Positions 10,983 through 64,000 of a stretch of DNA of 64,000 nt are shown here, one piece after another (the first letter of the stretch is position 1; each line of letters opens with the position of its first letter). The notes below the pieces were generated by a model. That model was not told the DNA's origin and made no database searches. It saw only the letters and a list, made by a program, of their open reading frames with translations. Origin of the DNA: Clostridiales bacterium. GTDB lineage: Bacteria > Bacillota > Clostridia > Saccharofermentanales > DTU023. Both the position numbers and the translations under genes were made by a program. The DNA lies in NCBI GenBank assembly GCA_004556925.1, contig SFFI01000003.1, positions 34,187-98,186 of the forward strand. Direction: 5' to 3'.

Positions 10983-11663
10983 CTAGTCGATACCTCTTGG
11001 AGCGTAGGCTAAGCCCTCGGGGGCACAAATCCCCTCCCCTTGACTTTGCTCCGCCACTAAGGCCCGTAAGTCTTCTTCGCGTTCCGGAGGGAGGGCCACC
11101 AACCATTCCACATCCAGGCCAAACTCCGCTTCTTCTTGCTGGAAGCCTGCTGCCTCCAACTTGTAGCGTAGGCTGTCGTAAACCCCGTATGGCACCATCA
11201 CCCGCATTTTAAGCTGTAAAGTCATGGTCACCAGGCCTGCGGCTGCTATGGCCTGGGCGGCCGCCTGGGTATAGCACTTCACCAGGCCCCCTGTGCCCAG
11301 GAGCACTCCGCCAAAATATCGCACTACCAAAATTTGCGCCTGGTCCACACCACCCTTGCGCAAAACGTCTAAAACAGGCATTCCCGCTGTCCCCTTAGGC
11401 TCACCATCATCTGAATACTTTCCCCCAATCTCCGGGAAAATATGCTGCCAGGCATAAACCCAATGGGTCGCATCTGGAAAATCCGCCCGACACTGGGCCA
11501 GCCGGGCTTCGGCCTCCGCCCCATTTGCAATGGGCAGGCAAATACCAATAAAGCGTGACCGGCGTTCCTCAAACTCAATCTGGGCTTCCCGCTCGACCGT
11601 TGTCCAGGAAGCTGGCCCACGAAAATCTGCTGGTAAATACTTGTGCACGAGGCTTTCATACAT
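10983..11663 (-). CDS. YigZ family protein (IMPACT/UPF0029 N-terminal domain)
   Basis: 226 aa. Contains ERRSRFIG, SDDGEPKGTAGMP and RYFGGVLLGTGGL motifs. Confidence 0.75.
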   Translation of the reverse strand: MYESLVHKYLPADFRGPASWTTVEREAQIEFEERRSRFIGICLPIANGAEAEARLAQCRADFPDATHWVYAWQHIFPEIGGKYSDDGEPKGTAGMPVLDVLRKGGVDQAQILVVRYFGGVLLGTGGLVKCYTQAAAQAIAAAGLVTMTLQLKMRVMVPYGVYDSLRYKLEAAGFQQEEAEFGLDVEWLVALPPEREEDLRALVAEQSQGEGICAPEGLAYAPRGID

Positions 11664-11685
11664 GGGCTTATTGTAGCAAGATTAG

Positions 11686-13227
11686 GTGTATGACGTCCAA
11701 AAGCCCTTCCATTGTGGTATTCTTATCTCTATGCAAGGCATTTTTCTTAATGACCCTAAGGTCCCTAAAGGCCCGCGCTTTCATTTGCGGGCTCTGGCCA
11801 TCTTGGTCCTCATTGGCGTGCAAGTGGGGATCTTTTTCCTACTCTACCGCAATAGTAGGGTGGATGAAAATCAGGAAACCCTGGTGACAAACCCCACTCG
11901 GCCAGTTGTCGCTACCGCCCCTCCGCCGCCTTTGGCGCTTTCAATTAAGGATGACGGCATGCAGGACCTCTTAAATGATTACTTTGGTCCTCTGCCCCGG
12001 GTTAAGGAAGAAGATAGGAAGCCTTATCAAAGTCTTTATCCGGTTAAGGGGATTTATCTGGGGACTGGCAAAGATTTAGATGCCGCCCTGGATCTGGCAC
12101 AAAACACAGAAGTCAATGCTTTTGTCATCGACGTCAAGGAGTCTTGGGGCTTAACCTATAAGTCACAAGTCCCCTTGGTCCAGGCAATGCAGGCCGATTC
12201 TGGCACTATCGACCTACAAGCTATCTTTGACCGCTGCCATGCGGCCGGCGTTAAAGTGATTGCCCGCCTGGTCTGCTTCAAGGATGAGGTCATGCCTCAG
12301 GCCCGACCTGATCTCTGCATCCAAGATAATGACGGCAACCTGCTCTCCTTTCCCTTAGAAGGGGGACTAGCCTTTGCTGATCCTTATAATCCTGAAGTCT
12401 GGGCCTATCTTCTGGATATCGCCCGTGAAGTGGTAGCCATGGGAGCAGATGAAATTCAATTTGACTATGTCCGCTTTCCCACAGGCTCCGCAGAGTCAGG
12501 AGCGGCCCCAAGTTTTGCGGCTATTGAAGAGAAGATTCCCAAGCAGTACGCCATTAATCGCTTTCTGGAAACCGCCCGAATTGAAATTCAGGAAAAGCTT
12601 GGCGTCCCAATCTCAGCCGACCTCTTTTCCATTGTCATGTCCTCAGAAGTGGACGGCCAGCTTATCGGACAGAATTGGTCCACCATCGGGCTGACGGGTA
12701 TTGACTGTATTTGCCCCATGATTTATCCCTCCCACTACGCCAATGCCTCCTTAGGCAGCCAGGGCAACGGGGTGGGTTCCTATATTGGCCAAGATTTTTT
12801 CACCGCGCCGGATACCGAACCCTACGCCGTTATAGAGAACGCCATTATAGATGGGGAACGCGCAAGCAAGCAGGCAGGCTACACTAGGCTACGCCCTTGG
12901 CTCCAAGCCTTTACTGCCTCTTGGCTGCCCCAGGGTTATTTTATGGCCTACGGCGGAGCAGAAATCCGCCAGCAAATAGAAGCCGTCTATGCGGCAGGCT
13001 ACGGGGAATGGTTGCTTTGGGACGCGGAATACACCTATCCGCGTGAGGCTTTTATCTCAGGGGCCGAAGCCCAAGTCCAGGAACGCCAGCAGGCTGTGGC
13101 CAGCGAGGCTCAGGCGAGCGAGCTGGCCTCCGAGCAGGCTTCCGAATCCGAGGCCCTAGCAGAGTTAGGGGGCGACGGCCAGCCTGTCTTCCCGATCGCA
13201 ACCGCCCCGCTCGGCCAAGGCCACTAG
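11686..13227 (+). CDS. membrane-anchored putative glycoside hydrolase (DUF4015 / COG1306 TIM-barrel family)
   Basis: 513 aa. N-terminal TM ALAILVLIGVQVGIFFLLY, then VKGIYLG...NAFVIDVKE...IQFDYVRFP, typical of this family. Acidic, serine-rich C-terminal tail. The start codon is uncertain. Confidence 0.6.
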   Translation: MYDVQKPFHCGILISMQGIFLNDPKVPKGPRFHLRALAILVLIGVQVGIFFLLYRNSRVDENQETLVTNPTRPVVATAPPPPLALSIKDDGMQDLLNDYFGPLPRVKEEDRKPYQSLYPVKGIYLGTGKDLDAALDLAQNTEVNAFVIDVKESWGLTYKSQVPLVQAMQADSGTIDLQAIFDRCHAAGVKVIARLVCFKDEVMPQARPDLCIQDNDGNLLSFPLEGGLAFADPYNPEVWAYLLDIAREVVAMGADEIQFDYVRFPTGSAESGAAPSFAAIEEKIPKQYAINRFLETARIEIQEKLGVPISADLFSIVMSSEVDGQLIGQNWSTIGLTGIDCICPMIYPSHYANASLGSQGNGVGSYIGQDFFTAPDTEPYAVIENAIIDGERASKQAGYTRLRPWLQAFTASWLPQGYFMAYGGAEIRQQIEAVYAAGYGEWLLWDAEYTYPREAFISGAEAQVQERQQAVASEAQASELASEQASESEALAELGGDGQPVFPIATAPLGQGH

Positions 13228-13258
13228 GATCTCTAGAGCCAGTCAGCTGGTCTTTTCC

Positions 13259-13618
13259 TTAATCCGCGAAAATATAGCGGACAATTTGTTGAATGATAGC
13301 CAAATCTTGAGCAGGTATTTGCTCAATAAACTCCAGCTTGCGGCAACTAAAATCGAATGACTTTAATTGAGATACAATGATTTGCCCATGGGTCTGGGTA
13401 GTGTCAGGTAAACTATAGCGTGTGGGAAAGTTTTTGACTGTACTAGTGATAGGACAGACCACAGCAAATCCGGTAGTAAGGTTAAACTGAAATTTAGAGA
13501 TAACAAGGGCAGGCCTTCGTTTTTTGATTTCCTTACCGCTAGCCGGATCAAAATCGATCCAGACGATGTCGCCCTCTTTAGGAACATATTGGTCTCGTTG
13601 GTCTCGTGCGCTGTCCAC
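13259..13618 (-). CDS. mazF: type II toxin, PemK/MazF family endoribonuclease
   Basis: 119 aa. YVPKEGDIVWIDFDPASGKEIKKRRPALVISKFQFNLTTGFAVVCPITS aligns closely with the MazF/ChpBK N-terminal core. Confidence 0.85.
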   Translation of the reverse strand: MDSARDQRDQYVPKEGDIVWIDFDPASGKEIKKRRPALVISKFQFNLTTGFAVVCPITSTVKNFPTRYSLPDTTQTHGQIIVSQLKSFDFSCRKLEFIEQIPAQDLAIIQQIVRYIFAD

Positions 13619-13645
13619 TAAACTTTACTCCTTTAGATATAGAGT

Positions 13646-13876
13646 CTATATCTCTTCTTTGCCAGCTGCGGGCACATCTTGCCAATAGTCTGCCTCATAG
13701 AAAGCATCCGGTTCAGCTACACGAAAAGGATCCGTAATTTCAGGTACCATGATGATGGATCCATTTTGGGTATACGTAACCATATAGTCTTTGCCACTTT
13801 TGAGCTTAACTTCCTCTGCCCCCGGAAGTGTTACTACAATAGAGCTTCCTTGTTTTCTGGTTCTTGTTTTTTTCAT
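13646..13876 (-). CDS. mazE: type II antitoxin, AbrB/MazE/SpoVT fold
   Basis: 76 aa. KQGSSIVVTLPGAEEVKLKSGKDYMV swapped-hairpin pattern with an acidic C-terminus. Sits 27 nt upstream of mazF. Confidence 0.75.
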   Translation of the reverse strand: MKKTRTRKQGSSIVVTLPGAEEVKLKSGKDYMVTYTQNGSIIMVPEITDPFRVAEPDAFYEADYWQDVPAAGKEEI

Positions 13877-13946
13877 ATCACCACCTCCAGCAACACAAGA
13901 ATAACATAATTACACCTAGTGTTGCAAGATGTTGTTTCGAAACATT

Positions 13947-13975
13947 AAAGGGACCGCCTGACTGACAGTCCCTTT
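13947..13975 (-). terminator. putative intrinsic terminator downstream of serS
   Basis: Minus-strand hairpin AAAGGGAC-(13 nt)-GTCCCTTT followed by a weak T tract, about 30 nt after the serS stop. Confidence 0.4.
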
Positions 13976-14002
13976 AGAGTCGATTGATTTCTTGACTAAG
14001 CT

Positions 14003-15310
14003 CTACTTGCGAGGCTCCAAGACCTCCTGTCCCTGCATATAGGGGCGGAGAACCTCTGGAATAATTACACTGCCATCTGCCTGCTGATTTTGCTCCAAAA
14101 TGGCTGGGAAAATCCGGGAAGTGGCAAGGCCAGACCCGTTAAGGCTGTGCAGGAATTCCGGCTTGTTGCCATCTTGGCGGCGGAAGCGGAGGTTCGTACG
14201 CCGCGCCTGGTAATCGCCTGAGGTGGAAACAGAGGATACCTCTTTATAACCGCCCATAGAGGGAATGTAGACCTCAATATCCCAGGTTTCCCGCATGGAG
14301 GCCGAGACATCGCCTGCAGCCAGCTTGACCAGCTGGTAGTGGAGGCCTAGTTTTTCTACCAGGCTGCAGGCCTTTGTAATGAGCTCTTTTAAGGCCGCCT
14401 CATCGTCTTCTGGCTTTACAAATTGGAACATCTCTACCTTATTAAACTGGTGGCCCCGGATCATACCGCGTTCTTCGGCCCGGTAGGAGCCCGCTTCCCG
14501 GCGGTAGCAGGGTGTGTAGGCAAAGCATTTGATGGGCAGGTCTTCTTCCTCCAAGATTTCATCCCGGTAGAGGTTGACCAGGGCTGTTTCTGCCGTGGGC
14601 AGGAGGAAACGGCCAAAGCCTTGCCCGTATTCATCGTCTTCCTTGCCTTGGAGCCGGAGCTGGAAGACATCTTCCGAAAATTTCGGGAACTGGCCAGCGC
14701 CCAGGCCGCAGGCATAGTTGAGGATGTGGGGCGGCAGGATCATTTCATAGCCATCTTTAATGTGCTCATTAATAAAGAAGTTGAGCAGGGCCCATTCCAG
14801 GCGGGCTCCCTGGCCCCTATACATCCAAAAACCAGAGCCGGAAAGTTTACTACCCCGGTCATAATCGATTAAGCCCAGACTTTCGGCTAAATCCACATGG
14901 TGCTTAGGTTCATAGGCGAATTGAGGTTTTTCCCCAAAAGTCTTCATCACCTGGTTATTTTCCTTGCCGCCTGCAACCACATGGTCGTGGGGCATATTGG
15001 GCAGGCCAATCATAAATTGATACTGGGCCTCATCCAAGGCTTGTAGTTCAACTTCTTTATTTTTGATATCTTCGGAAACTTGTTTAAGCTCTTCCAAGAG
15101 TCCAGAGGCGTCCTGGCCAGCTTTTTTCAGTTTGGGGATTTCTGCGGATTTCTTATTACGCAAGGCCTTGAGTTCTTCCGTCTCGTGGATCAGGGCGCGG
15201 CGTTCCTTGTCCTGGTCTAGAAAGTGGCTGAGATCTAAATCAAAGCCTCGCTTGGCTAAAGCTTTAACTACAGTTTCGGGATCATTGCGCAGTAAATTAA
15301 TATCTAACAT
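14003..15310 (-). CDS. serS: serine--tRNA ligase
   Basis: Class II aaRS with an N-terminal coiled-coil arm (MLDINLLRNDPETV...). The likely true start is the ATG at 15310, preceded by GGAAGAGGAAAT. The track ORF extends to 15355. Confidence 0.9.
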   Translation of the reverse strand: MLDINLLRNDPETVVKALAKRGFDLDLSHFLDQDKERRALIHETEELKALRNKKSAEIPKLKKAGQDASGLLEELKQVSEDIKNKEVELQALDEAQYQFMIGLPNMPHDHVVAGGKENNQVMKTFGEKPQFAYEPKHHVDLAESLGLIDYDRGSKLSGSGFWMYRGQGARLEWALLNFFINEHIKDGYEMILPPHILNYACGLGAGQFPKFSEDVFQLRLQGKEDDEYGQGFGRFLLPTAETALVNLYRDEILEEEDLPIKCFAYTPCYRREAGSYRAEERGMIRGHQFNKVEMFQFVKPEDDEAALKELITKACSLVEKLGLHYQLVKLAAGDVSASMRETWDIEVYIPSMGGYKEVSSVSTSGDYQARRTNLRFRRQDGNKPEFLHSLNGSGLATSRIFPAILEQNQQADGSVIIPEVLRPYMQGQEVLEPRK

Positions 15311-15397
15311 ATTTCCTCTTCCTTTCTGCTCCACGGCTACAGGCTTAGGTGTCAATTAATAGCTTTTCTAGATTATAGCTCAAGCGAGGGCCCTCGG

Positions 15398-16801
15398 CTA
15401 TCTTCGATCTTTGGGATAGGCTTGCAGGGCAAGGCCCGTAAGAGCCTCTACGCTAGCACACAGGACTTGAAGATTGGGCAGGAGGTCTTCTTCTCTAAAG
15501 TCAAAGGCAGGGTGGTGGTGGGCGGTGCTTGTATCCGTGCCCAACATAAGGTGGAGGGCCTGGCCGCCCTGGCGGAGGACCTGGTTCATCCATGTGACTA
15601 CATCTTCCGAAGCCGCGAAGTCCGGAGCCAGGATGGGCTGTAACCCTAGGGCAGCCACGGTCTGGTGGAGCTTGCGGCCCTGATCCACATAGGCTGAAAG
15701 GTAAGCAGGGTCCAGGGCTTCCGCGTAGCCCTCGGGGGTCAGCTGGTAGCTGAGGTCCCTAGCCTGGCAGATTCCCTGGACCAGCGTTTTCATCTTGCTT
15801 TCTAAGTCCTGCATGGTCTTTGCATCTATCGCCCGAATTTCAAACTCCATCTGGGCGGACTCGGGGATCACATTGGGAACCTGACCGGCCTCCAGCCTGC
15901 CCACATTAAGGAAGGCTTTGCTATGCCCATATTGGGTGAGGGTATGGAGGTTTAAGGCCAGGCTGGCAGCTGCCAGCAGGGCATTTTTTCCGGTTTCGGG
16001 TGCGGAAGCAGCGTGGGCAGCTTGGCCCTGCACATCCAGCAAGAACTTTTGACTGGCCAGGAAGCCTTGTGTTGCCAACCCCAGGCTACTAGACGGAATC
16101 CCCAGGCCCAAGTGGCAGGCAAACATGTAGTCCACCCCAGCCGCCAAGCCCTTCTTTACCATGCTGTAGGCGCCCCGGCAGGACTCTTCCGCAGGTTGAA
16201 AAACCAGGCGAACCTTGCCTTTAAGCGATGTGGTCTGGGCGATAATCTGGGCCAAGGCAAGGCCCAAGGCAATATGACCATCGTGGGCACAGGCATGGCA
16301 GGCCTGACCGTTGCTTTGAGCGAAGTGTTCTCTCGCTGGCCGGTGGTCTTTGGCTTGGCTTTCCCCTATTGCTAGTGCATCTATGTCGAAGCGGAAGAGT
16401 ACATAAGGACCAGGCTGACCCGAGTCCCAATCTGCTACTACACCCGTATAAGAATCTAAAATTTCAGCAAAGACGCGGTCATCAATCGGCATCTGGGTCG
16501 CATGATTGGTCGTTCGCGCAATGGGGGCACTGGCCCCTTGTTGCACGCGCCCAAAAAGTTGAGCCAACTCTGCCCGTTTAATCCCACACTTCGCTTCATA
16601 ATGCGCCTTAAAGTCCCTACTCGGCAGGGCTAAACGGTTTTCTGTATGTAAAGCCTTGCCTAGCTGAACAGACCAACCAAGGTCTACAAGGCGGGCGGCA
16701 ATCTCCAGGCTGGTACGAAACTCTAGCCAGCCCGGCTCGGCAAGGCTATGGAAAAAGCGGCGGTCAGCGATGAGTTGCTGGGCAAGTGGGAGTGCAGGCA
16801 T
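15398..16801 (-). CDS. M20 family amidohydrolase / peptidase
   Basis: 467 aa. Contains ACAHDGH and VFQPAEES metal-binding motifs of M20D amidohydrolases. Confidence 0.7.
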   Translation of the reverse strand: MPALPLAQQLIADRRFFHSLAEPGWLEFRTSLEIAARLVDLGWSVQLGKALHTENRLALPSRDFKAHYEAKCGIKRAELAQLFGRVQQGASAPIARTTNHATQMPIDDRVFAEILDSYTGVVADWDSGQPGPYVLFRFDIDALAIGESQAKDHRPAREHFAQSNGQACHACAHDGHIALGLALAQIIAQTTSLKGKVRLVFQPAEESCRGAYSMVKKGLAAGVDYMFACHLGLGIPSSSLGLATQGFLASQKFLLDVQGQAAHAASAPETGKNALLAAASLALNLHTLTQYGHSKAFLNVGRLEAGQVPNVIPESAQMEFEIRAIDAKTMQDLESKMKTLVQGICQARDLSYQLTPEGYAEALDPAYLSAYVDQGRKLHQTVAALGLQPILAPDFAASEDVVTWMNQVLRQGGQALHLMLGTDTSTAHHHPAFDFREEDLLPNLQVLCASVEALTGLALQAYPKDRR

Positions 16802-16883
16802 AGGGGAACCTCAACTTAACAAGGATAGGCAAATGATAACACGCCTGCTAGGTGCTGGGAGAAGACTAGTATCTTTTGAAATT

Positions 16884-16914
16884 AAAAGAAGCTGGTCCGT
16901 ATTGGACCAGCTCC
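16884..16914 (-). terminator. intrinsic terminator after rplL
   Basis: Minus strand GGAGCTGGTCC-AATAC-GGACCAGCTTC followed by TTTTAATTTC, about 50 nt after the rplL stop. Confidence 0.8.
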
Positions 16915-16964
16915 GTAAAGTCTAGGCAACCAGCAGGGCTGGCTGAGCTAAAAGGAAGCGCAAA

Positions 16965-17351
16965 CTACTTGAGTTCGACTTCGGCGCCAGCTTCTTTGAG
17001 CTTGTTGGCGATTTCTTCGGCTTCTTCTTTTTCAACGCCTTCCTTGACCGGCTTGGGTGCTTCGTCAACCAGAGCCTTAGCGTCTTTGAGGCCGAGGCCG
17101 GTGAGTTCACGGACAACCTTGATAACGCCGATTTTGCTGGCACCAGCAGACTTCAGGATAACGTCAAAGCTGCTCTGCTCTTCTTCAGCGGCTGCACCAC
17201 CGGCTGCGCCAGCGGCACCAGGAGCAACGGTCATCATAGCGGCGGCGGATACGCCAAATTCTTCCTCTAAGGCTTTGACCAGGTCATTCAGTTCGATAAC
17301 GGTTAGGCCCTTAACTTCTTCGATGAGGGCATTAATTTTTTCACTTGCCAT
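16965..17351 (-). CDS. rplL: 50S ribosomal protein L7/L12
   Basis: 128 aa. [26 protein letters not shown], an Ala/Gly hinge, and [19 protein letters not shown]. Confidence 0.95.
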
Positions 17352-17368
17352 TTTATATTCCTCCCAAA

Positions 17369-18037
17369 TTATTCAGCGGGGCTTTCTTCCGCTGCTGGTG
17401 TTTCTTCTTGGCCTTCGGTGGCCGGGGCAGGGGCCTCTTCTTGAGGTGCTGCATTTTCTTCAGGCGCAGATTCTGCGGCCGGGGCTTCTTCAGCTGCAGG
17501 AGCAGCTTCGACAGCCAGGTCTTTAACATTTTCCAGGCCGTTCTCTTCCGCTTTCTTGGCCATAGCGCCAAGGGTCATGGCCAGAGAAGTGACAGGGAAA
17601 ATCAGGCTGGATACCAGTTGTCCGTACAGAACTTCAAGTGAAGGAATGTTAGACAGAGCGGTGATGGTTTCGAGGGGTGCCAGGGCACCTTCGATAACGC
17701 CACCCTTAATCTTCATTTTCTTGAAGTCGTCGACATACTTTTTGACCAAGCGAGGAGCCATCGTAATGTCATCATTTGACCATGCAATGGCTGTGGGGCC
17801 AGTCAAAATTTCGTCGAGGCCAGTTACACCGAGCTCTTCAAAAGCTCTGAGTAGCTGGGTGTTCTTCACAACCCGGTAATTCAGATTGCCTTCACGGAAA
17901 GCATGGCGCATTTGCGTGTCTTGATCTACGGTTAAGCCCTGGTATTCGGAAAATACGACGGACTCAGCAGACTTAAGATCTTCGACTAAGAGCTCAACGG
18001 CCGCTTGCTTTTTGGCGAGAATTTTATCGCTGGGCAT
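17369..18037 (-). CDS. rplJ: 50S ribosomal protein L10 with an acidic Ala/Pro/Glu-rich C-terminal extension
   Basis: 222 aa. L10 core ([23 protein letters not shown]...) plus about 50 extra C-terminal residues, [48 protein letters not shown]. Confidence 0.9.
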
Positions 18038-30330: not shown

Positions 30331-31713
30331 ATGAAAGATATGGTGTTGGATACTAAGGAAAAGAGAATCTTGAAGCGTCAATTTTGGGACCTGGCCTACC
30401 CAAGTATTATTGCCTTTACCCTGCAAGGCTTTTACGACATCATCGACATGATGTGGGTCGGCAAAATTTCCAAGGAAGCCATAGCGGGGGTCACCCTTTT
30501 TTCCGTTATCTATGCCCTGTTTGGGGTCTTAAACGAGGTCGCCGGCGCTTCTTCCGTTTCTATGATTTCCCAATCCTATGGCCGCGGGACGGAAGAAAGA
30601 ACGCAAACCATCTCGGAGCAGACGATTTCCTTTAAGGTCGTCCTGGCCATTATTACGGGAACATTGATTTACCTGAGCCTGGACCCTATTCTCAATTGGT
30701 TTTCTTCCGATCCCCTAGTCATCCAAGCCGCTAAAGATTATGGGATTATTCGGACCTTTGCCCTGCCCATCGCTTTTTCTTCTTATTCGGTTAACACCAT
30801 CTTCCGCTGCACGGGCGACTCCAAGACGCCCATGAAGGTTATGCTGATTGCTACAGCCATCAATATGGTCCTGGACCCCCTCCTCATGTTCAACTGTATC
30901 CCCCTAGGTCCCTATGAACTAAAGGGCTTTGGCCTGGGCGTTTATGGGGCCGGCCTAGCTACCGTCATTTCCATCTGCATCTCCTTTGGCCTGGGCTTCT
31001 TCATCCTCGTGACCGGGCGCCGAGATGTAACCATCAGCATGCGAGGGCTTCTCCGCCTGGATAAAGAAATTGACCTTCAACTCCTCTCCATTGGCCTGCC
31101 AGCTGGCGGTCAGCTCCTCATCCGTCAAGCCTTCAACACCCTGCTCATGGGCTTTATCACGTCTTATGGCACTCTAGCCGTCACCATCTTTGGCCTGGGA
31201 ACCAAGCTCGTCCAATTTTCCTTCTCCTCCATGGCAGGCTTCTCTTTTGCTGGCTCCACCATGGTGGGCCACGCCCTGGGCCGCGAACATGTGGAAGAGG
31301 CCTCCTATTTGGCCCGAGTCGCCACGACCATCATTGTGACCATCATCGGGACCATCGCTGGCCTGGCTATGCTCTTTCCCAGAACCTTCCTGGGCTTCTT
31401 TAATACCGATCCGGCTGTCTTAACAGCCGGAAGTCCCATGCTACGCTGGCTTGCTGCCTCCATGATTATCGCCGCCTTTGGGTCCGGTATGCGGATTGTC
31501 TTTTCTGGCTCCGGCTTCAACCGCCCCGTGCTAATCTCCACCATTATCTCGCGCTGGCTAGTCCAACTCCCCCTCATGTACGTTTTCGTCAAAATCCTCC
31601 AAGTCCCCTTGAATACCCTCTGGATCTCTTTCATCATCGCAGAGCTGGCCGACTTGGCCGTCGTTGTCTACTACTTCCGCCGCGGCGATTGGAAGCTGAA
31701 ACGCGTTGGCTAG
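30331..31713 (+). CDS. MATE family efflux transporter
   Basis: 460 aa, 12 predicted TM helices. N-terminus LAYPSIIAFTLQGFYDIIDMMWVGKISKEAIAG is typical of the MATE/NorM family. Confidence 0.85.
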   Translation: MKDMVLDTKEKRILKRQFWDLAYPSIIAFTLQGFYDIIDMMWVGKISKEAIAGVTLFSVIYALFGVLNEVAGASSVSMISQSYGRGTEERTQTISEQTISFKVVLAIITGTLIYLSLDPILNWFSSDPLVIQAAKDYGIIRTFALPIAFSSYSVNTIFRCTGDSKTPMKVMLIATAINMVLDPLLMFNCIPLGPYELKGFGLGVYGAGLATVISICISFGLGFFILVTGRRDVTISMRGLLRLDKEIDLQLLSIGLPAGGQLLIRQAFNTLLMGFITSYGTLAVTIFGLGTKLVQFSFSSMAGFSFAGSTMVGHALGREHVEEASYLARVATTIIVTIIGTIAGLAMLFPRTFLGFFNTDPAVLTAGSPMLRWLAASMIIAAFGSGMRIVFSGSGFNRPVLISTIISRWLVQLPLMYVFVKILQVPLNTLWISFIIAELADLAVVVYYFRRGDWKLKRVG

Positions 31714-31714
31714 G

Positions 31715-31915
31715 GAGTAGCGAAGGCTATGATGCTTTGGTTTTGCGGATTCTCCGGCAAAATTGCAACTAATGGGTGAGCCGCCGGACAAGTTTGCGAC
31801 TAGTGGATGGTTAAAAAGGCAAATCTGCAAGTAATGGGTACTTTAGGCCCTGAAACTCATCCGTTACTTGCAAATTCGTCTGAGAAACCAGGAAACCGAG
31901 ATCAAGGGCAAGATA
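31715..31915. repeat. left inverted arm (arm A) bracketing the AT-rich segment
   Basis: About 80 percent identical to the reverse complement of 35190..35425 over the core. Contains the 16-bp motif at 31763..31778, 31794..31809 and 31825..31840 (direct, 31-bp phasing) and at 31858..31873 (inverted). Boundaries are approximate. Confidence 0.85.
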
Positions 31916-32013
31916 AAGAAGGAGATAAAGAGCAAGTAACACCAATCAAGTGGGTACCGAAATGAAGTGCTTAAGTTGGGACTGAGGCATGTCGCCATAA
32001 AATAATTAATTCT

Positions 32014-33627
32014 TCACTGGCTGCCTATTGCTAGAGTTTTATTATAATTAATATTTGTATGCGATCCATGCTGGACAAAGAAAATGATTTTATCTCTTTT
32101 ACCGATAATTTCATTTACTTTTTGCTTATATAGGCAAGTACCTGCCACATCCAAGCCGGCATCTACCTCATCCAATATAAGAACCGAAGCAGACTCCATG
32201 CGTAAAAATAAAGTTGCCAGTTGAATCCTTTTGCGCTGGCCGAAGGATATATTATTCCCCTCACTCTGAATAGTTTTATGCAGATCCAACTCTTTAATGA
32301 TCTCTAAAGCCTCAGGATCCGCCTCTTGGCTGATGTCTTTACCCGTAAATACACGAAGGTAATTAAGGATAGAATCGGTGATATATCCGTCATTTTGCCC
32401 GATATAGACAATCTCCTGGTTAACGGCAGTCGGATCGTAGACTTCCAGAGATTGATTATTAAGCTTAACATTTCCGCTTAAAGGCTTATACACTCCCTGC
32501 AAAAGCTTAAACATCGTGCTTTTTCCTGCCCCGTTTGGGGCAATCACTTTGATGCAGTCACCCCTCTCAAATTTGAAGTTAATGTTGTCCAACAAATACT
32601 CTGCCCGATCGCCATAGCCAAAACACACATTGATGAACTCTACACTTTCAATCCTTGACAAGCTTTTCTGCCCTGTTTTCAGGGGGAGTTTCCGTAGCTG
32701 ATCAATCTGGCGGAAGGCACCATATGAAGATAAAATTTGAAAATAGAGCTGGTCAATTTTGCTGATGTTCCCGATGACGATATTTGAAATTGACATGATA
32801 AAAACTAAATCGACAAGTGTATTTTGGGGATTAATCGTGATAAAGGCAAACAAAGCAAGGCTAAAAATAGAATTGATATGCCTTAATAAATTCGAGTAAA
32901 AGACTTGTTTATTATCTAGCGCTTTAGCTGTCTGTATAAAATCTTGTATTGCTTCTGTTGTTTTAGCCTGATAATAACCCAATATATTATTGGATTGAAC
33001 CCTATCCATTTGCGAAGAAAAATCTCTGCAAATTGCACTATGGCTTTTCATCTTGCTATTGATGGTTTCAGAAGCCTCTTTCATTATTTCTCGCGTTTTA
33101 TTCGCAATCAAGAGGCCTAAAAGAAATCCTACGGATAATAACACGGCTACGACAATATTATGGAAGGCTGTAATCAGTATAGCCGTAATGACAATCGCCA
33201 AGGAACTGATAAGAGCCGCCGAATGATGTCCAATCACCCGAAAGGCATCTAAGACATCATTATAAATAATATTATATATTTTATCGCGTCCCACTTGATC
33301 AATTTCAGCCCCGTATGTAAATGCTAATCGACTTTCAAGGGTGAGGGTTAGCTGTAAGATATAGTTTCCGCCAAAATCATCCAAGGCCCTGTACCACAAA
33401 ACGTCAATAAGATTCACAAACAGCAGGATGGCTGAATATGAGGCGATACCCACACCGAGAAATAACCATTGATCAGCCTGTAGGCTCAAGGCATCTAAAA
33501 AATGTTTGATCGCAAGCGGGATAATTGCCTGTACCAGCGTATTAATGAATGCCAGCACAAACACTTTCCCAAAAAGCTTGGGATACAAGCAAATGGCTTC
33601 TTTCAAATACTTTATAATCAGCTTCAT
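32014..33627 (-). CDS. ABC exporter half-transporter (N-terminal six-TM domain fused to NBD)
   Basis: 537 aa. Walker A APNGAGKST, degenerate signature ISFGQRKR, Walker B LILDEVDAGLD. Markedly AT-rich compared with neighbouring genes. No N-terminal peptidase domain. Confidence 0.8.
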   Translation of the reverse strand: MKLIIKYLKEAICLYPKLFGKVFVLAFINTLVQAIIPLAIKHFLDALSLQADQWLFLGVGIASYSAILLFVNLIDVLWYRALDDFGGNYILQLTLTLESRLAFTYGAEIDQVGRDKIYNIIYNDVLDAFRVIGHHSAALISSLAIVITAILITAFHNIVVAVLLSVGFLLGLLIANKTREIMKEASETINSKMKSHSAICRDFSSQMDRVQSNNILGYYQAKTTEAIQDFIQTAKALDNKQVFYSNLLRHINSIFSLALFAFITINPQNTLVDLVFIMSISNIVIGNISKIDQLYFQILSSYGAFRQIDQLRKLPLKTGQKSLSRIESVEFINVCFGYGDRAEYLLDNINFKFERGDCIKVIAPNGAGKSTMFKLLQGVYKPLSGNVKLNNQSLEVYDPTAVNQEIVYIGQNDGYITDSILNYLRVFTGKDISQEADPEALEIIKELDLHKTIQSEGNNISFGQRKRIQLATLFLRMESASVLILDEVDAGLDVAGTCLYKQKVNEIIGKRDKIIFFVQHGSHTNINYNKTLAIGSQ

Positions 33628-33819
33628 CTGTTTTTACCTTACCTAGCGACTAGGTTTGACGCTTCATATACCCCGCACTCTGTCAAGTGGACTCTACACC
33701 TGGTGGGCAGAGCTGACCACCCAAAAGTCCTCCTTTGGGCTCTCGGGGACTAGCCATTTATCCTAAGCTTCCACTCCCTATTTCACCTGGAAACTTTGCT
33801 TTATTTACCAGAAGAAAGT

Positions 33820-34245
33820 CTATAGATTTTTATCCCGGTTGTAAACAAACCAGCCACAAGCAAGGAAAGGAATAAGTAGCAAAAAAATTGCAGGTTTTTT
33901 TTCTGCAGAGGAGGTGATAAATAGATAACTAGCAATGCCCATGGCAAGTGTCGAAAACACGAGCAAAAGAAACAAGCTAATCCAAGCTCTTTTCTTTGTT
34001 CTTGCCAGTTTAGCAATTAACAATTGACCTATTAAATTTAAGAGGATTACGCCATAAAAAACGAATAAAAAAAACATCTTATTCTGATACCCTGCCCAGT
34101 TTTGATGACTTTCTTTAATTTCGTAATTAAATTGATAAAGACGGATATCGTGAACAAATAGCATAGATATTAAGGCTGCTCCCATAGCCAGCGCATATTT
34201 TTGCCAGGTATAGCGGAAAAAAGAAAACTTATCTGGGTTATCCAT
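33820..34245 (-). CDS. small four-TM membrane protein (possible immunity/accessory protein)
   Basis: 141-aa ORF with four hydrophobic helices (YALAMGAALISMLFV, MFFLFVFYGVILLNLIGQLLIA, AWISLFLLLVFSTLAMGIASYLFI, PAIFLLLIPFLACGWFVY). The ATG lies 4 nt after the stop of the upstream micro-ORF. Confidence 0.6.
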   Translation of the reverse strand: MDNPDKFSFFRYTWQKYALAMGAALISMLFVHDIRLYQFNYEIKESHQNWAGYQNKMFFLFVFYGVILLNLIGQLLIAKLARTKKRAWISLFLLLVFSTLAMGIASYLFITSSAEKKPAIFLLLIPFLACGWFVYNRDKNL

Positions 34246-34249
34246 ACTG

Positions 34250-34390
34250 TTAAACCATATATATTAGCTGTTTAGTTTCTGTGTTCGGCTGTGAAGGGTC
34301 ATTGGTGGCAAAAACAATCGAAGGTGCAATATAATAAATAGATAAAGTTATAACAAGGGTTAACAAGCAAATTTGTTGGATCTTCTTCAT
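34250..34390 (-). CDS. 46-aa secreted or membrane micro-protein (signal peptide plus 18-aa polar tail)
   Basis: Manual translation gives MKKIQQICLLTLVITLSIYYIAPSIVFATNDPSQPNTETKQLIYMV. RBS GAGGA lies 8 nt upstream of the ATG. Too short for the ORF track. Coding status is unproven. Confidence 0.4.
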   Translation of the reverse strand: MKKIQQICLLTLVITLSIYYIAPSIVFATNDPSQPNTETKQLIYMV

Positions 34391-34545
34391 ATGTAGCATC
34401 CTCATTTGAAATAAATTATATTAATTTTGTTAATAGTATATAACTTTGTTTAAGTGAGCATCAAATGAAAGATGTGCACAGCGTCAGCGCGAACTTCCCT
34501 ACGCTCTCGAACCAAAGCTTTCCGGCTGTGATACTCAAAATAGAA

Positions 34546-34851
34546 CTACGTCAATAAATTCTCGTTGTAAACCTTTAAACCAATGGCCCACATATCGCGA
34601 ACCATCTCACTTGCGACAGCTACCTTTGCGACATTTATTTTCTTGCCCTTAGAAATTAAATGTCGGAATCGCTTATAGTGCCGCATATTACACTTGCGCG
34701 CTTCAGCGTCCACTTCTGGTGAAACTTCATGACCTGTACGCATCGTTTTCATATACAAATCGCATAGGTTCTGACAAACGCGTTTTTGTCCATTCAAGGA
34801 TGTCGTACGCGCTTGGACAGTTATTAAGACGTCCATGAATCTCTTTTCCAT
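34546..34851 (-). pseudogene. C-terminal remnant of an IS110-family (DEDD) transposase
   Basis: 101-aa ORF ending ...YKRFRHLISKGKKINVAKVAVASEMVRDMWAIGLKV, which resembles the conserved IS110 C-terminus (...GK..KVA.VAVARK....W..L). An in-frame TGA lies immediately upstream and no N-terminal catalytic domain is present. Confidence 0.4.
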
Positions 34852-35189
34852 TCATGAGGTCTTTTGCAGATAATGTAATGGATCATGCATGCTGGTCCAA
34901 GGCAATAACAGATGCAAATCCGTCCGTATCATGTATTCTTTCATTGAAGCCCCTCCCTGTTTGCGGCAATTACATCCGCGTGGATTTTTGTTCTTACACC
35001 AAGCGTATTGTTTCTGGCCTGCGTGTCAACAGATAGGGCTTTTCTTTGCTCAGGTGCGGGGTATATCGTCTACATGTAAACAATAATACCTATTCTAAAG
35101 CTAAAGTAAAAAGTAAGTTCCATTACAGGCCATGCTGGCTGGTTAAAGCCTGTGGAAATCGCCAATAGTAGTGAGGACTTTTGGCCTAG

Positions 35190-35425
35190 CTGATGCCTGC
35201 CTTCCCTTCCTATTACTTCGGTTTTCTTAGATTTCGGACAAATTTGCAGGTAATGGATGGGTTTACTCTCAGAAACAGAGGCCAAACCACCCATTACTTG
35301 CTTATTTGCCCGCGTTTCCATCCACTAGCTGCAAACTTGTCCGACTGGCCACCCATTAGTTGCAAAAATGCCAGAAAATTCGAAAATCCAAACTACAACA
35401 GGCTCAGGGCACACACTACTAGCGA
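35190..35425. repeat. right inverted arm (arm B) bracketing the AT-rich segment
   Basis: Reverse-complement homolog of arm A. Motif copies at 35244..35259 (forward) and 35288..35303, 35319..35334, 35350..35365 (reverse, 31-bp phasing). Confidence 0.85.
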
Positions 35426-35513
35426 TATTGACCAAAAATCCGAAAAACCCAACTAGCCCTTCTCTCAAGGAAAGCTATAAGTTAATACAGTCGATGCCAA
35501 TTTATTAATATAA

Positions 35514-35643
35514 ATTTTTGAGGCTTGATTAAATTATGGTCGGGGCGCATGAACTGTCAATGGCGCCTTCGGCGCCGCATAGCGGTCACAGACCATTGAC
35601 AGTTCGTGAAGCTCGGCCTAGAAAGTTAACAAGCCTCAAAAAT
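35514..35643. repeat. 130-nt long imperfect palindrome / hairpin (MITE-like or structured RNA)
   Basis: The outer 14-bp stem ATTTTTGAGGCTTG (35514..35527) pairs with CAAGCCTCAAAAAT (35630..35643). The inner 13-bp stem GAACTGTCAATGG (35551..35563) pairs with CCATTGACAGTTC (35593..35605). Two small GC hairpins lie at the apex. Confidence 0.8.
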
Positions 35644-35768
35644 CTGTGGTCTGTAAGACTTAATTCCTATTGGATTTTACTGAAAGACTAAATGCAACTC
35701 CCCATCCTTAGTGTGAAACTTACTTTTTCACTTTAGCCCTAGTTAATACCCAAGTCGGGCGTACTCAT

Positions 35769-35802
35769 AAAAAGGGCTGCCTCTGTTGGAGGCAGCCCTT
35801 TT
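35769..35802 (-). terminator. intrinsic terminator after ppdK (potentially bidirectional)
   Basis: AAGGGCTGCCTC-(5 nt)-GAGGCAGCCCTT flanked by an A-run and a T-run, about 45 nt after the ppdK stop. Confidence 0.85.
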
Positions 35803-35844: not shown

Positions 35845-38517
35845 CTAGCCTTCGATTCTGTGGCGGCCGTGCTCACGGAAGTCCACGGAGACGTAGTCTC
35901 TGGGTTTCTCAATTTGGGCTTGGGCGGCGGCCAGGATGGCGATGGGCACGCGGTAGGGTGAGCAGGAGACGTAGTCGAAGTTCAGGTCGTGGCAGAGGTG
36001 GATGGATGAGGGTTCACCACCGTGTTCACCACAGATACCCAGATGGATTTCGGGCTTCACTTCTCTAGCCTCTTGTGAGCTGATCTTGACCAGGCGGCCA
36101 ACACCCTTTTGGTCCAGGATGGCGGTTGGGTCGCTCTCGAAGATACCCTTCTGATAGTAGGTATCGAGTACGCGGCCAGCGTCATCACGGGAGAGACCGT
36201 AACCCATTTGGGTGAGGTCGTTGGTGCCGTAGGAGAAGAAGTCTGCGTGCTGTGCGATCTCATCGGAGGTCAGGGCAGCACGGGGAATCTCGATCATGGT
36301 ACCTACCAGGTAATGGAGGTCCTGACCGGCTTCCTTAATCAGCTGGTCAGCCTTGTCCGTGATGATCTTGCGCAGGTATTCCAGCTCCTTGTCTACAGAA
36401 ATTAGGGGGACCATGATTTCGGGATAGACCTTGATGCCTTCTTTTTGAACGTTGAGGGCAGCAGAGATAATAGCCTCTACCTGCATTTCAGCAATCTCGG
36501 GGAAGACTACTGCCAGGCGGCAGCCACGCATACCCAGCATGGGGTTGGCTTCGGCCAGGCCGTGTACGACGCGCTTAATCTCGTCGAGGCTGATGCCCAT
36601 AGCATCGGCAAGTTCCTTCATCTCATTTTCTTCATGAGGCAGGAATTCGTGCAGAGGGGGATCCAGGAGACGGATGGTAACAGGCAGGCCCTGCATAGCG
36701 CGGAAGATGCCTTCAAAGTCGCCTCTCTGGATGGGGAGGATCTTGGCCAGAGCGGCTCTTCTTTCTTCTTCGTTCTTAGCCAGAATCATTTGACGGAATT
36801 CAAAGATACGGTCTTTCTCAAAGAACATGTGCTCGGTACGGACAAGGCCGATACCGCCCGCACCCAGTTCCAGAGCCTTGGCGGCGTCCTTGGGTGTGTC
36901 GGCGTTAGCACGCACGTTCATCTGACGGGTTTCGTTAGCCCAGTTGAGGACTGTGGAGAAATAGCCAGTGATATGTGCTTCTACAGAGGGGATAGCACCA
37001 GCGTAAACTTGGCCAGTGGTACCGTCGATAGAGATGACATCACCCTTATTAAGAGCTAAGTCTTTCAGATAAGCTTTGCCAGCGGCCTCATCGATGGTGA
37101 GGTCGGCACAGCCAGAAACACAACACTTACCCATACCACGGGCCACAACGGCAGCGTGAGAGGTCATGCCGCCACGAGCGGTCAGAATACCTTCTGAGAG
37201 GTTCATGCCTTCGATATCTTCAGCGGAGGTCTCCAGGCGAACCAGGATAACCTTTTTGCCAGCTTCCTTAGCGACCCGGGCTTCTTCTGCGCTGAAGACA
37301 ATTTCTCCGGAGGCGGCACCAGGAGAGGCAGGCAGACCCTTGGCTACAGGCTGGGCCTTCTTTAAGGCAGCTTCATCAAACATGGGGTGGAGGAGGGCAT
37401 CCAGGCTCTGAGGATCGATTTGTTGGAGGGCACGTTCCTTGGAAACCATGCCTTCTTCAACCATTTCTACTGCTACGCGCATGGCGGCTTGGGCGGTACG
37501 TTTACCATTACGGGTTTGGAGGATAAAGAGCTTGGACCGTTCAATGGTAAATTCTAGGTCTTGCATGTCGCCATAGTGTTTTTCCAGGCGCTTGGCGATG
37601 TCAGAGAACTGGTTGTAGATGTCTACGTTCCAGGTCTTCATTTCTTCCAGGTTAATAGGTGTACGAACACCAGCTACAACGTCTTCACCTTGAGCATTAA
37701 TCAAGAATTCTCCGTAGACTTTATTCTCACCGGTAGCAGGGTTGCGGGAGAAGGCTACACCGGAGCCAGAGTCATCACCCATGTTACCAAAGACCATCTC
37801 TTGAACGTTGACAGCAGTTCCCCAGGAGGCCGGGATATTGTGCATTTGGCGATAATAGATGGCACGGGGGTTATTCCAGGACCGGAAGACCGCTTCTACT
37901 GCTTCGATCAACTGCATCTTGGGATCTTGAGGGAAGTCTTCTCCCTTGATTTCTTTATAGCGGGCCAGGGAGGCTTGAGCGACTTTTTCTAGGTCCTCAG
38001 CATCCAACTCGGTGTCTTCGGTAACGCCCGTGGCCTTTTTAGCCTCGTCCATTAAGGCTTCAAATTCATCCTTGTGGACTTCCATGACGACGTCAGAGAA
38101 CATCATGATAAAGCGGCGGTAGGCATCGAAAGCAAAGCGGCGGTTATTGGTCAGCTTGGCTAAGCCTTCAACCACCTCATCATTGAGGCCCAGGTTGAGG
38201 ACTGTGTCCATCATGCCGGGCATAGAAGCACGGGCACCAGAACGGACGGAAACCAGGAGGGGATTATCCTTATCACCCAGGGTCTTGCCGGTCGCAGCCT
38301 CTAACTTGTGGAGATATTCAAAAATTTCCTCTTGAATGCCATCGGAAATCTTTCTGCCGTGGTCGTAATAGGCCATGCAGGCTTCTGTAGAAACGGTAAA
38401 GCCATTGGGTACAGGGAGGCCCAAGCCGGTCATTTCAGCCAGGTTCGCACCTTTACCACCGAGCAATTCACGCATGGAAGCGTTCCCTTCGGAAAACATG
38501 TAAACAAATTTTTTCAT
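35845..38517 (-). CDS. ppdK: pyruvate, phosphate dikinase
   Basis: 890 aa. MKKFVYMFSEGNASMRELLGGKGANLAEM, phospho-His region GGMTSHAAVVARGMG and C-terminal PEP-utilising TIM barrel motifs. Confidence 0.95.
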   Translation of the reverse strand: MKKFVYMFSEGNASMRELLGGKGANLAEMTGLGLPVPNGFTVSTEACMAYYDHGRKISDGIQEEIFEYLHKLEAATGKTLGDKDNPLLVSVRSGARASMPGMMDTVLNLGLNDEVVEGLAKLTNNRRFAFDAYRRFIMMFSDVVMEVHKDEFEALMDEAKKATGVTEDTELDAEDLEKVAQASLARYKEIKGEDFPQDPKMQLIEAVEAVFRSWNNPRAIYYRQMHNIPASWGTAVNVQEMVFGNMGDDSGSGVAFSRNPATGENKVYGEFLINAQGEDVVAGVRTPINLEEMKTWNVDIYNQFSDIAKRLEKHYGDMQDLEFTIERSKLFILQTRNGKRTAQAAMRVAVEMVEEGMVSKERALQQIDPQSLDALLHPMFDEAALKKAQPVAKGLPASPGAASGEIVFSAEEARVAKEAGKKVILVRLETSAEDIEGMNLSEGILTARGGMTSHAAVVARGMGKCCVSGCADLTIDEAAGKAYLKDLALNKGDVISIDGTTGQVYAGAIPSVEAHITGYFSTVLNWANETRQMNVRANADTPKDAAKALELGAGGIGLVRTEHMFFEKDRIFEFRQMILAKNEEERRAALAKILPIQRGDFEGIFRAMQGLPVTIRLLDPPLHEFLPHEENEMKELADAMGISLDEIKRVVHGLAEANPMLGMRGCRLAVVFPEIAEMQVEAIISAALNVQKEGIKVYPEIMVPLISVDKELEYLRKIITDKADQLIKEAGQDLHYLVGTMIEIPRAALTSDEIAQHADFFSYGTNDLTQMGYGLSRDDAGRVLDTYYQKGIFESDPTAILDQKGVGRLVKISSQEAREVKPEIHLGICGEHGGEPSSIHLCHDLNFDYVSCSPYRVPIAILAAAQAQIEKPRDYVSVDFREHGRHRIEG

Positions 38518-63451: not shown

Positions 63452-64000
<549 letters not shown>

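Follow-up and report, generated by a model that had tools for sequence, protein, structure and literature searches.

What are the two long inverted arms that border an AT-rich segment between a MATE efflux gene and ppdK in the genome of a Clostridiales bacterium? The segment lies within a 64-kb stretch of contig SFFI01000003.1 (hereafter the window; coordinates are positions in it, while L0xx labels denote loci or contigs from other genomes or strains). Its cargo comprises an ABC exporter, a protein with four transmembrane segments (4-TM), a micro-open reading frame (ORF) and a transposase remnant. An earlier note had interpreted arms and cargo as one non-autonomous, horizontally acquired transposon. 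Instead, we consider it probable that two things are superimposed here: a variable AT-rich islet in a recombination hot spot, and two separate copies of an interspersed repeat family. Judged from the sequences compared below, the arms appear to be separate copies of a small repeat scattered in related gut-type Clostridia rather than the ends of one transposon, and the islet seems to be an ordinary variable accessory locus that is decaying and horizontally exchanged.

The arms and their repeat family

A repeat search recovered the inverted pair at 31736-31852 and 35276-35392 (117 nt, 77% complementary), which was extended by BLAST to about 175 nt at 72% identity. Using an nhmmer profile built from seven family members, we found full copies in the 64 kb only at 31733-31902 (plus strand) and 35214-35396 (minus strand); no third full copy was detected there or in some 20 kb of sequence next to the window. 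The long inverted homology described in the earlier note is therefore real and far beyond chance, and the bounds given there (31715-31915 and 35190-35425) were correct though slightly generous. The mismatches are indeed concentrated between conserved motifs, as had been noticed: each arm holds four copies of a 16-bp core.

31733..31902, plus strand: left copy of the roughly 170-bp modular interspersed repeat, in consensus orientation (nhmmer E=3e-52; weaker similarity to about 31724-31925)
31763, 31794 and 31825 (direct, 31-bp spacing) and 31858-31873 (inverted): 16-bp unit cores of the left copy, located by pattern search
35214..35396, minus strand: right copy, 72-77% identical to the left one and in the opposite orientation (nhmmer E=6.9e-50)
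35244 (plus strand) and 35288, 35319 and 35350 (minus strand): unit cores of the right copy, a mirror image of the left arm

The left copy starts 20 bp past the MATE stop codon and lies about 110 bp past the stop codon of the ABC exporter gene. It is present in every same-species strain contig that reaches this point and also in the sister species (L024, about 86-88% identical). The right copy is nested in an outer short inverted repeat, read from the sequence as ATCGC(CAA)TAGTAGTG at 35152-35171 and CACTACTAGCGAT at 35413-35425.

The unit core, TTGCrrsTArTGGrTG, matches nine times in the window, and eight of these matches fall in the arms (0.74 expected by chance in 64 kb). Alignment of all copies to hand revealed a constant order: a terminal repeat TT(T/C)GGaTTTTCGGATTCTCCGG, units 1, 2 and 3, a short loop, the inverted unit 4 and finally GAAAtCC..AAtCCGAAAT, the inverse of the first terminus. 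Terminal inverted repeats (TIRs; TTCGGATTTTCGGATTCTCC... and ...GAAAtCCGAAAT) were seen in the seven-copy alignment. The repeat measures 170-215 bp and its direct units keep a constant 31-bp spacing; most copies have three direct units, and that of L010 has four. Drift is seen in the spacers, whereas from copy to copy each unit retains a signature (GGG in units 1 and 3, GGA in unit 4). The G+C content of the repeat is 0.43-0.46 versus 0.52 for the host genome.

In a single-sequence fold the arm ends pair with each other (-57 kcal/mol, z=-3.4). Units 3 and 4 form a conserved hairpin of about 25 bp, as in the left copy, with 86% of cells paired across copies, and all slid controls dropped to 29-47%. 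Covariation corroborated this hairpin, since seven pairs were changed on both sides versus 3.0+/-1.3 in shuffles (0/500). With TIRs and an inverted unit of its own, each arm appears to be a self-contained, complete element.

To follow the repeat beyond the window, as the earlier note had proposed, we scanned 185,579 species genomes with a two-unit pattern; the scan missed the L024 copy, so that its counts are minima. Four places were matched, three on contigs of one uncultured Oscillospiraceae metagenome-assembled genome (MAG; CAYNNG01) and one in a Clostridiales MAG (JAQYCV01). Copies found so far, that of L024 included, amount to at least three contigs in CAYNNG01, at least two contigs in JAQYCV01, and two in the window. 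The window organism has a sister species in JAQYCV01 (L011 1-305 versus window 63696-64000, 87%), whose MATE-ppdK locus was recovered as L024.

All three sites for which flanking ORFs were read (L010, L012 and L011) are intergenic. According to our reading of the translations, without a family search, the L010 copy lies downstream of a heavy-metal P-type ATPase-like gene and upstream of a dehydrogenase-like gene, the L012 copy lies between rpsF and a Sua5/YrdC-like gene, and the L011 copy, which corresponds to a point about 0.7 kb past the window end (64000), adjoins a surface protein gene. The search thereby yielded solo copies between housekeeping genes in two related MAGs. No transposase adjoins the copies at the flanks read among the four genome matches, and no partner site was found within 8 kb of the solo copies. 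Arm BLAST against PLSDB plasmids and INPHARED phages gave no match, nor did two pattern scans of viral contigs.

Assemblies tend to break at the copies: the Logan contigs L007 and L008 end at window position 31828, L009 begins inside a copy, and a run of 100 Ns abuts the one in L012. A profile of the repeat family could therefore serve annotation of a repeat that breaks short-read assemblies, and the repeat could be used as a strain marker.

Two further pattern matches from metagenomes (JGI; L013 and L014) were rejected as chance, being unrelated tandem repeats with a period of 30-32 bp that fit the pattern by construction. L014 (1-240) is an AT-rich contig with at least eight tandem copies of a 31-32-bp unit, AAAAAAACGGTTGCCGATAATGGGTGAATAT. 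It is curious that a TTGC..TAATGGGTG core and the period are common to this unit and the arm unit.

Arms and islet at the MATE-ppdK spacer

We then asked how the arms relate to the islet and its flanks, for which the following features are needed:

30331..31713, plus strand: MATE efflux gene, left core flank (PF01554 1.3e-43)
35092..35125, minus strand: short stretch with homology to sequence that precedes the precursor gene in the same-species strain L005 (L005 12696-12727, 94%)
35145..35166, plus strand: short motif AAAGCCTGTGGAAATCGCCAAT, a single 22-bp copy that in L024 begins direct repeats of about 72 bp
35514..35643 (L020 11635-11770), no strand assigned: 130-bp near-perfect hairpin with TIR TTTTTGAGGCTTG, part of the ancestral MATE-ppdK spacer and not of the arms
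35770..35802, minus strand: terminator-type hairpin of ppdK with a perfect stem of 14 bp and then a T run; kept in L002, L020 and L024; right limit of the variable region
35845..38517, minus strand: ppdK, right core flank, whose 3' half is as close to the sister species as the cargo is

In 300-bp windows the G+C content falls from 0.55-0.57 at 31000-31600 to 0.32-0.44 over 31750-35800 and returns to 0.54-0.56 within ppdK. The mean of 31903-35213 is 0.395 versus 0.525 for the whole window, and third-position G+C is 0.35-0.47 in the cargo genes as compared to 0.55-0.67 in the flanking UppP, VanZ, MATE, ppdK and glyS genes. Both measures bear out the sharp drop past the MATE stop codon. The estimate of one-third G+C given earlier applies to the troughs at 32.8-33.1 kb and 33.85-34.6 kb, but not to the segment as a whole.

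The same spacer differs between relatives. L020, whose MATE protein is 92% identical, has MATE, a spacer of 750 bp and ppdK, with neither cargo nor arms; that is, the empty site sought by the earlier note exists. L020 retains the ppdK terminator and the 130-bp hairpin element, the latter in opposite orientation. In L021 (MATE 86% identical; 11431-17380) three genes directly follow MATE, of which one encodes a type I restriction R subunit (1053 aa) and another a Ser/Thr protein kinase (502 aa); together they would form a defence-type island at the same hot spot. In L022 (MATE 65% identical) synteny differs. Taken as a comparison of loci, this points to the MATE-ppdK spacer as a variable hot spot for accessory islets. 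The earlier interpretation is thus supported in part, in that the segment is accessory DNA of foreign composition: the site is empty in L020 and filled by a different island in L021, and the cargo is closer to the sister species than the core flanks are.

The right boundary is where the arms and the cargo part company. In the window and in L003 it consists of the inverted copy, a spacer and the 130-bp hairpin. L002, which has an identical MATE protein, lacks the sequence corresponding to window 35160-35771; at a junction that differs from that of the window it carries a direct-orientation copy, 90% identical to the left arm, which abuts the ppdK terminator. In the sister species (L024) the same cargo occupies the same site and the left arm is kept, with neither right copy nor hairpin, while the cargo-free L020 has the hairpin element alone. 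The right copy is thus polymorphic in insertion, being inverted (window), direct (L002) or absent (L024). Furthermore, a homologous cassette with a radical S-adenosylmethionine (rSAM) gene and an ABC gene in another genome, L017, has no arms.

The interpretation of the arms as ends of one non-autonomous transposon is not supported: the cargo occurs without the right arm, this arm is flipped in L002, and solo copies exist elsewhere; the armless L017 cassette speaks against it too. The earlier note had named two findings that would weigh against its own proposal, and both were largely obtained: the arms are dispersed intergenically, and the cargo at this site of the sister species lacks the right arm.

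A comparison of the window with L024 revealed how the islet may have moved instead. Identity is 66-89% in the left flank (29.0-31.6 kb), 93-99% in the cargo (32.0-34.6 kb) except for two short divergent patches, 91-98% in ppdK (35.8-37.8 kb) and 81-88% beyond 38.0 kb. A tract that starts in the islet and ends in a core gene argues for import by homologous recombination and not for arm-bounded transposition. The alignment suggests that the islet is exchanged by homologous recombination through flanking core DNA, and judging from the identity profile it would move between lineages in this way rather than by transposition of its own.

Could a single transposon, or a composite of two miniature inverted-repeat transposable elements (MITEs), nevertheless have moved as a unit into the MATE-ppdK spacer, with the multi-site arms as ends mobilised in trans? 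The arms lie near the edges of the low-GC block, the empty site of L020 lacks arms and cargo alike, and a pair of MITEs is in principle able to move intervening DNA. In addition, multi-site arrays of subterminal motifs are typical of Tn7/Mu/Tn402-type ends. Besides the findings in L024 and L002 and the solo copies, however, each arm already forms a complete palindrome of its own, with TIRs at its two ends and an inverted unit; the arms are 72-77% identical to each other as compared to 93-99% for the cargo between species; and the high-identity tract extends into ppdK, as expected of homologous recombination. Inspection by eye revealed no matching flanks around arm-cargo-arm, and no target-site duplication was found; the empty site of L020 is too diverged to map junctions. 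We regard movement as one such unit as very unlikely.

A site-specific mechanism was considered as well, in which the arms would be att-like or inverton-like sites for a recombinase encoded elsewhere, allowing inversion, or excision and exchange, of the cassette between them. Inverted and direct configurations do occur among strains of one species, and locus content is swapped among strains (for example rSAM versus 4-TM). Accessory sites of recombinases can form arrays of arm-type repeats, which the arms recall. But inversion products were not seen, as the cargo never changes orientation among the six genomes or contigs, and the flipped copy of L002 differs in sequence and junction and so is no simple flip. 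Moreover, the solo copies have no partner site within 8 kb, no recombinase gene was found nearby, and the direct repeats flanking the L024 insertion are a different sequence. We regard this mechanism, too, as very unlikely.

Several points weigh against the two superimposed elements that we favour. Only two full copies occur in the roughly 84 kb of this species that were covered (window plus L015), and both lie at the MATE-ppdK locus. No cargo-bearing genome was seen without the left arm, and in L024 this arm is located inside the bracketing direct repeats, which together leave room for a historical link between left arm and islet. Neither a partner transposase nor a consistent target-site duplication was found for the repeat, and TA flanks were seen by eye in two of about five copies. 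The recombination tract is drawn from one pairwise comparison, and stronger purifying selection on the 3' half of ppdK could contribute to it. Finally, cores that are more conserved than spacers could equally mean a host function, be it protein binding or RNA.

The direct repeats of L024, about 72 bp long (aaagcctgtggaaatcgccaattcacattttcaccg...) and about 92% identical by eye, bracket the left arm together with the cargo. Within the window, the short AAAGCCTGTGGAAATC motif is found once and shows no dispersal. Between MATE and the arm, L024 has an array of about 520 bp with related short hairpin motifs, CCACAGG-N6-CCTGTGG followed by AAATC, in which the motif of window 35145-35166 recurs. The direct repeats and the array (L024 11795-12280 and 8285-8400) are possibly remains of an att-like or recombination site that was used when the islet entered.

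The 130-bp hairpin of the spacer folds as RNA with -68.5 kcal/mol (z=-9.9) and has an inner GGCGCC-UUCG-GCGCC stem-loop. Its counterpart in L020 is 78% identical with compensatory stem changes; in L002 and L024 it is absent. Its minus strand holds a strong sigma-70-like site (TTGACA-16-CATAAT, 35560-35533). The hairpin may be a structured RNA or else a second mobile palindrome of small size. Searching Rfam at E<=1 over 28-40 kb gave no match at the arms or at this hairpin, only terminator-like noise.

Around the right arm and the hairpin lies another inverted repeat of about 33 bp (35092-35125 and 35705-35742), whose sequence is continuous and in minus orientation upstream of the precursor gene in L005, a contig that stops within it. 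A hint is thereby given that the right-boundary block was inverted or rearranged between strains.

Nature and spread of the repeat

We also considered host cis elements, that is, protein-binding arrays three helical turns apart or structured untranslated-region or small-RNA modules that affect neighbouring transcripts. Copies that are otherwise 58-77% identical have drifting spacers but nearly invariant cores at a fixed spacing of 31 bp, and (U/C/G)GGAUG or UGGGUG motifs recur together with the hairpin. Compensatory changes maintain that hairpin, and an invariant G-U pair favours RNA, in consensus orientation. Copies lie between genes, next to gene ends; the sigma-70-like promoter at 35560-35533 (minus strand) could transcribe the right copy in consensus orientation, and regulatory effects are known for BOX elements (PMC3049150). 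On the other hand, no Rfam family matches, the neighbouring genes have nothing in common, orientation to the neighbours varies between strains, and a consistent terminator tail was not seen in the alignment. Polymorphism in presence or absence at a single locus would also rather be expected of a selfish repeat. A role as host cis element, which would be compatible with a MITE origin rather than exclusive of it, seems quite unlikely to us.

The arms as copies of an interspersed repeat are best described as a seemingly undescribed MITE/BOX-like family, which we file under the general term 'small modular interspersed repeat' and under no named family. Its copies come and go independently of the cargo in an uncultured Oscillospiraceae/Eubacteriales lineage. 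As the simplest explanation of their spread we infer a MITE-like mobilisation in trans, by a transposase for which the TIR and the repeated subterminal units would be recognition sites; the ends of a partner insertion sequence (IS) or transposon would then carry TTCGGATTTTCGG and the TTGCrrsTArTGGrTG unit. As in BOX elements, slippage or unequal exchange may have altered the number of units.

BOX elements of S. pneumoniae and S. suis are modular interspersed repeats of the type boxA-boxB(n)-boxC (Croucher et al. 2011, PMC3049150). Like the arms they are small and intergenic, and they combine terminal modules with variable tandem internal modules (three or four in the arms; PMC3049150); this likeness is one of architecture only, and a relationship in sequence is not expected. 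TIRs, a stem-loop if transcribed, variation between strains at a locus and the lack of an own transposase are likewise common to both (PMC3049150). The arm unit measures 31 bp as compared to about 45 bp for boxB, however, and is a copy of a motif in the repeat's own terminal modules; also, the host of the arms is an uncultured Clostridia lineage of about 52% G+C. Pneumococcal genomes carry many BOX copies, far more than the at least two to three arm copies per MAG found so far.

With MITEs such as RUP or Correia/CREE (definition according to PMC3049150) the arms have in common a size below 300 bp, TIRs, a strongly paired fold and, as far as the copies found go, a dispersed intergenic location. 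Polymorphism in presence/absence and orientation and a G+C content under that of the host fit as well. Differences are that the arms have no consistent target-site duplication and no identified parent IS, and that their internal array of subterminal motifs is unusual among MITEs derived from IS630 or other ISs. This array rather recalls a fused pair of asymmetric multi-site ends (three sites plus one site), as in Tn7/Mu/Tn402-type transposons, though by analogy only.

REP/BIME and REPIN sequences resemble the arms in having a short conserved motif in both orientations, an inverted pair that forms a hairpin (units 3 and 4) and intergenic clusters. IS110-family elements target REP-type repeats, and the IS110 remnant of the islet lies about 360 bp from an arm. 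Unlike REP sequences, the arm units are not palindromic themselves and occur in fixed 31-bp direct arrays with distinct terminal repeats.

A bolder version of the same idea, which we hold to be unlikely, is that the 31-bp-unit repeat forms an undescribed class of modular elements in uncultured Oscillospiraceae, whose near-invariant units bind a dedicated protein (a multi-site DDE transposase, a host factor or an RNA-binding regulator) and whose copies seed islet turnover at hot spots such as MATE-ppdK by way of portable homology. Under the DDE-transposase variant, each copy would be a miniature fusion of a three-site asymmetric end and a one-site end.

Other assignments were discarded. CsrA-sponge-like, CodY-box and Spo0A-box readings of the motifs were dropped by eye, the consensus match being poor or inconsistent between units. 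CRISPR, attC/integron, diversity-generating retroelement and retron were rejected on anatomy, as the 23-bp repeats are degenerate with 8-bp spacers, attC-type symmetry is lacking and there is no reverse transcriptase. The right arm was also rejected as bridge-RNA region of an IS110 element: only the C-terminal tail of such an element is left, the arm would lie in its former coding region, and solo arms lack IS110.

For annotation the case is instructive, since long inverted homologous stretches around a low-GC block resemble transposon ends, yet here would be independent repeat copies.

The cargo and its probable ancestral peptide cassette

Between the arms, the following genes were identified:

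32014..33627, minus strand: exporter of the ABC half-transporter type, 537 aa, with transmembrane domain and ATPase and without peptidase domain (PF00005 8.8e-22)
33820..34245, minus strand: 141-aa protein with four hydrophobic segments (by eye) and no family match
34250..34405, minus strand: 51-aa ORF with signal-like N-terminus (46 aa from the second Met)
34546..34851, minus strand: 101-aa ORF, putative IS110 remnant whose C-terminal ~40 residues resemble the tail of IS110-family transposases (NF033542 E=0.0015, 17.7 bits versus a cut-off of 140)

The cargo had been described correctly: the ABC exporter is confirmed by its PF00005 match, the four-TM protein by its hydrophobic segments and the signal-peptide micro-ORF by its N-terminus, and no intact transposase or integrase was found in 31.7-35.8 kb. 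As for the transposase remnant, the 101-aa ORF does match an IS110 C-terminal tail, its residues 51-90 aligning to positions 301-337 of 343 in NF033542, but the match is weak; it might at best be an IS110 insertion-sequence remnant. No Pfam, PDB or Rfam match and no upstream transposase frame were found for this ORF, and for the 141-, 51- and 101-aa ORFs together Pfam, NCBIfam and PDB returned nothing meaningful save the weak IS110 tail.

The exporter matches NCBIfam peptide/bacteriocin exporter families (1e-37 to 1e-22), all under the family cut-offs. It has very few homologues; that in L017 is 55% identical. In L017, whose cassette is flanked by a cation ATPase and by infC, as well as in the same-species strain L005, an rSAM gene is located immediately upstream of the ABC gene, and the two rSAMs are 53% identical. 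The rSAM matches radical-SAM/SPASM maturase families, all under cut-offs (best TIGR04133, 2.7e-25, 89 bits versus 425). Upstream of each rSAM gene we read a 39-aa ORF from the sequence, MKQIIMKLLDFLGVASGSIAPGGRRSAADAAWQCGGEHC in L005 (12470-12615, minus strand) and MKRTIVKLLSMLGIPTVSIVSRDIAAQGEAAWQCGGENC in L017 (6543-6662), and both of these putative precursors end in AAWQCGGE(H/N)C. In L005 the precursor region had been fused into the rSAM ORF by the gene caller. The core matched no NCBIfam family and the motif was not found in paper text, and the precursors may belong to an undescribed family of ribosomally synthesised and post-translationally modified peptides (RiPPs).

Because L005 and L017 pair an rSAM gene, a precursor ORF and an ABC gene, an ancestral precursor/rSAM/ABC cassette can be proposed. 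The original cargo was probably a peptide-antibiotic (RiPP) cassette of precursor, radical-SAM/SPASM maturase and ABC exporter, which is complete in L005 and L017, and of which the exporter, all that is present in the window, would be the sole surviving gene. Searches with tblastn using rSAM and precursors detected no remnant of either in the window cargo, and the 1.45 kb upstream of the window exporter are unrelated to the rSAM cassette. In the 3.3-kb core, the 4-TM gene, the micro-ORF and the IS110 remnant would have replaced the precursor and maturase genes of this older form. L005 and L017 resemble rSAM/SPASM RiPP cassettes with a dedicated ABC exporter (sactipeptide/ranthipeptide type) in that a precursor with a Cys core, a maturase and an exporter share one operon. 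Unlike those, the window has neither precursor nor maturase, and the maturase falls below the cut-off of every named NCBIfam family. The RiPP cassette is small and rare, was found in two lineages with cassette proteins 53-55% identical, and matches no named family; with AAWQCGGE(H/N)C as its conserved core it may be of use for work on uncultured gut Clostridia.

The cargo genes appear to decay differently in different genomes. In L024 the ABC gene is broken by three deletions, and across strains and the sister species the 4-TM gene encodes 141, 147 or, truncated, 65 aa. The 141-aa protein has only two homologues among 5.8 billion proteins and is possibly an immunity-type membrane protein.

Adjacent to the 4-TM gene, where the window has its 51-aa ORF, L024 has a Gly/Ala-rich hydrophobic ORF of 100 aa (9508-9810; …GVLISSIVSVLTIPFAMGASVLSQVLVAVGSAVISGGIAVVV…), and window 34279-34366 has no match in L024. 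Judged by eye, the 100-aa ORF resembles a bacteriocin-type peptide with an adjacent immunity-type membrane protein.

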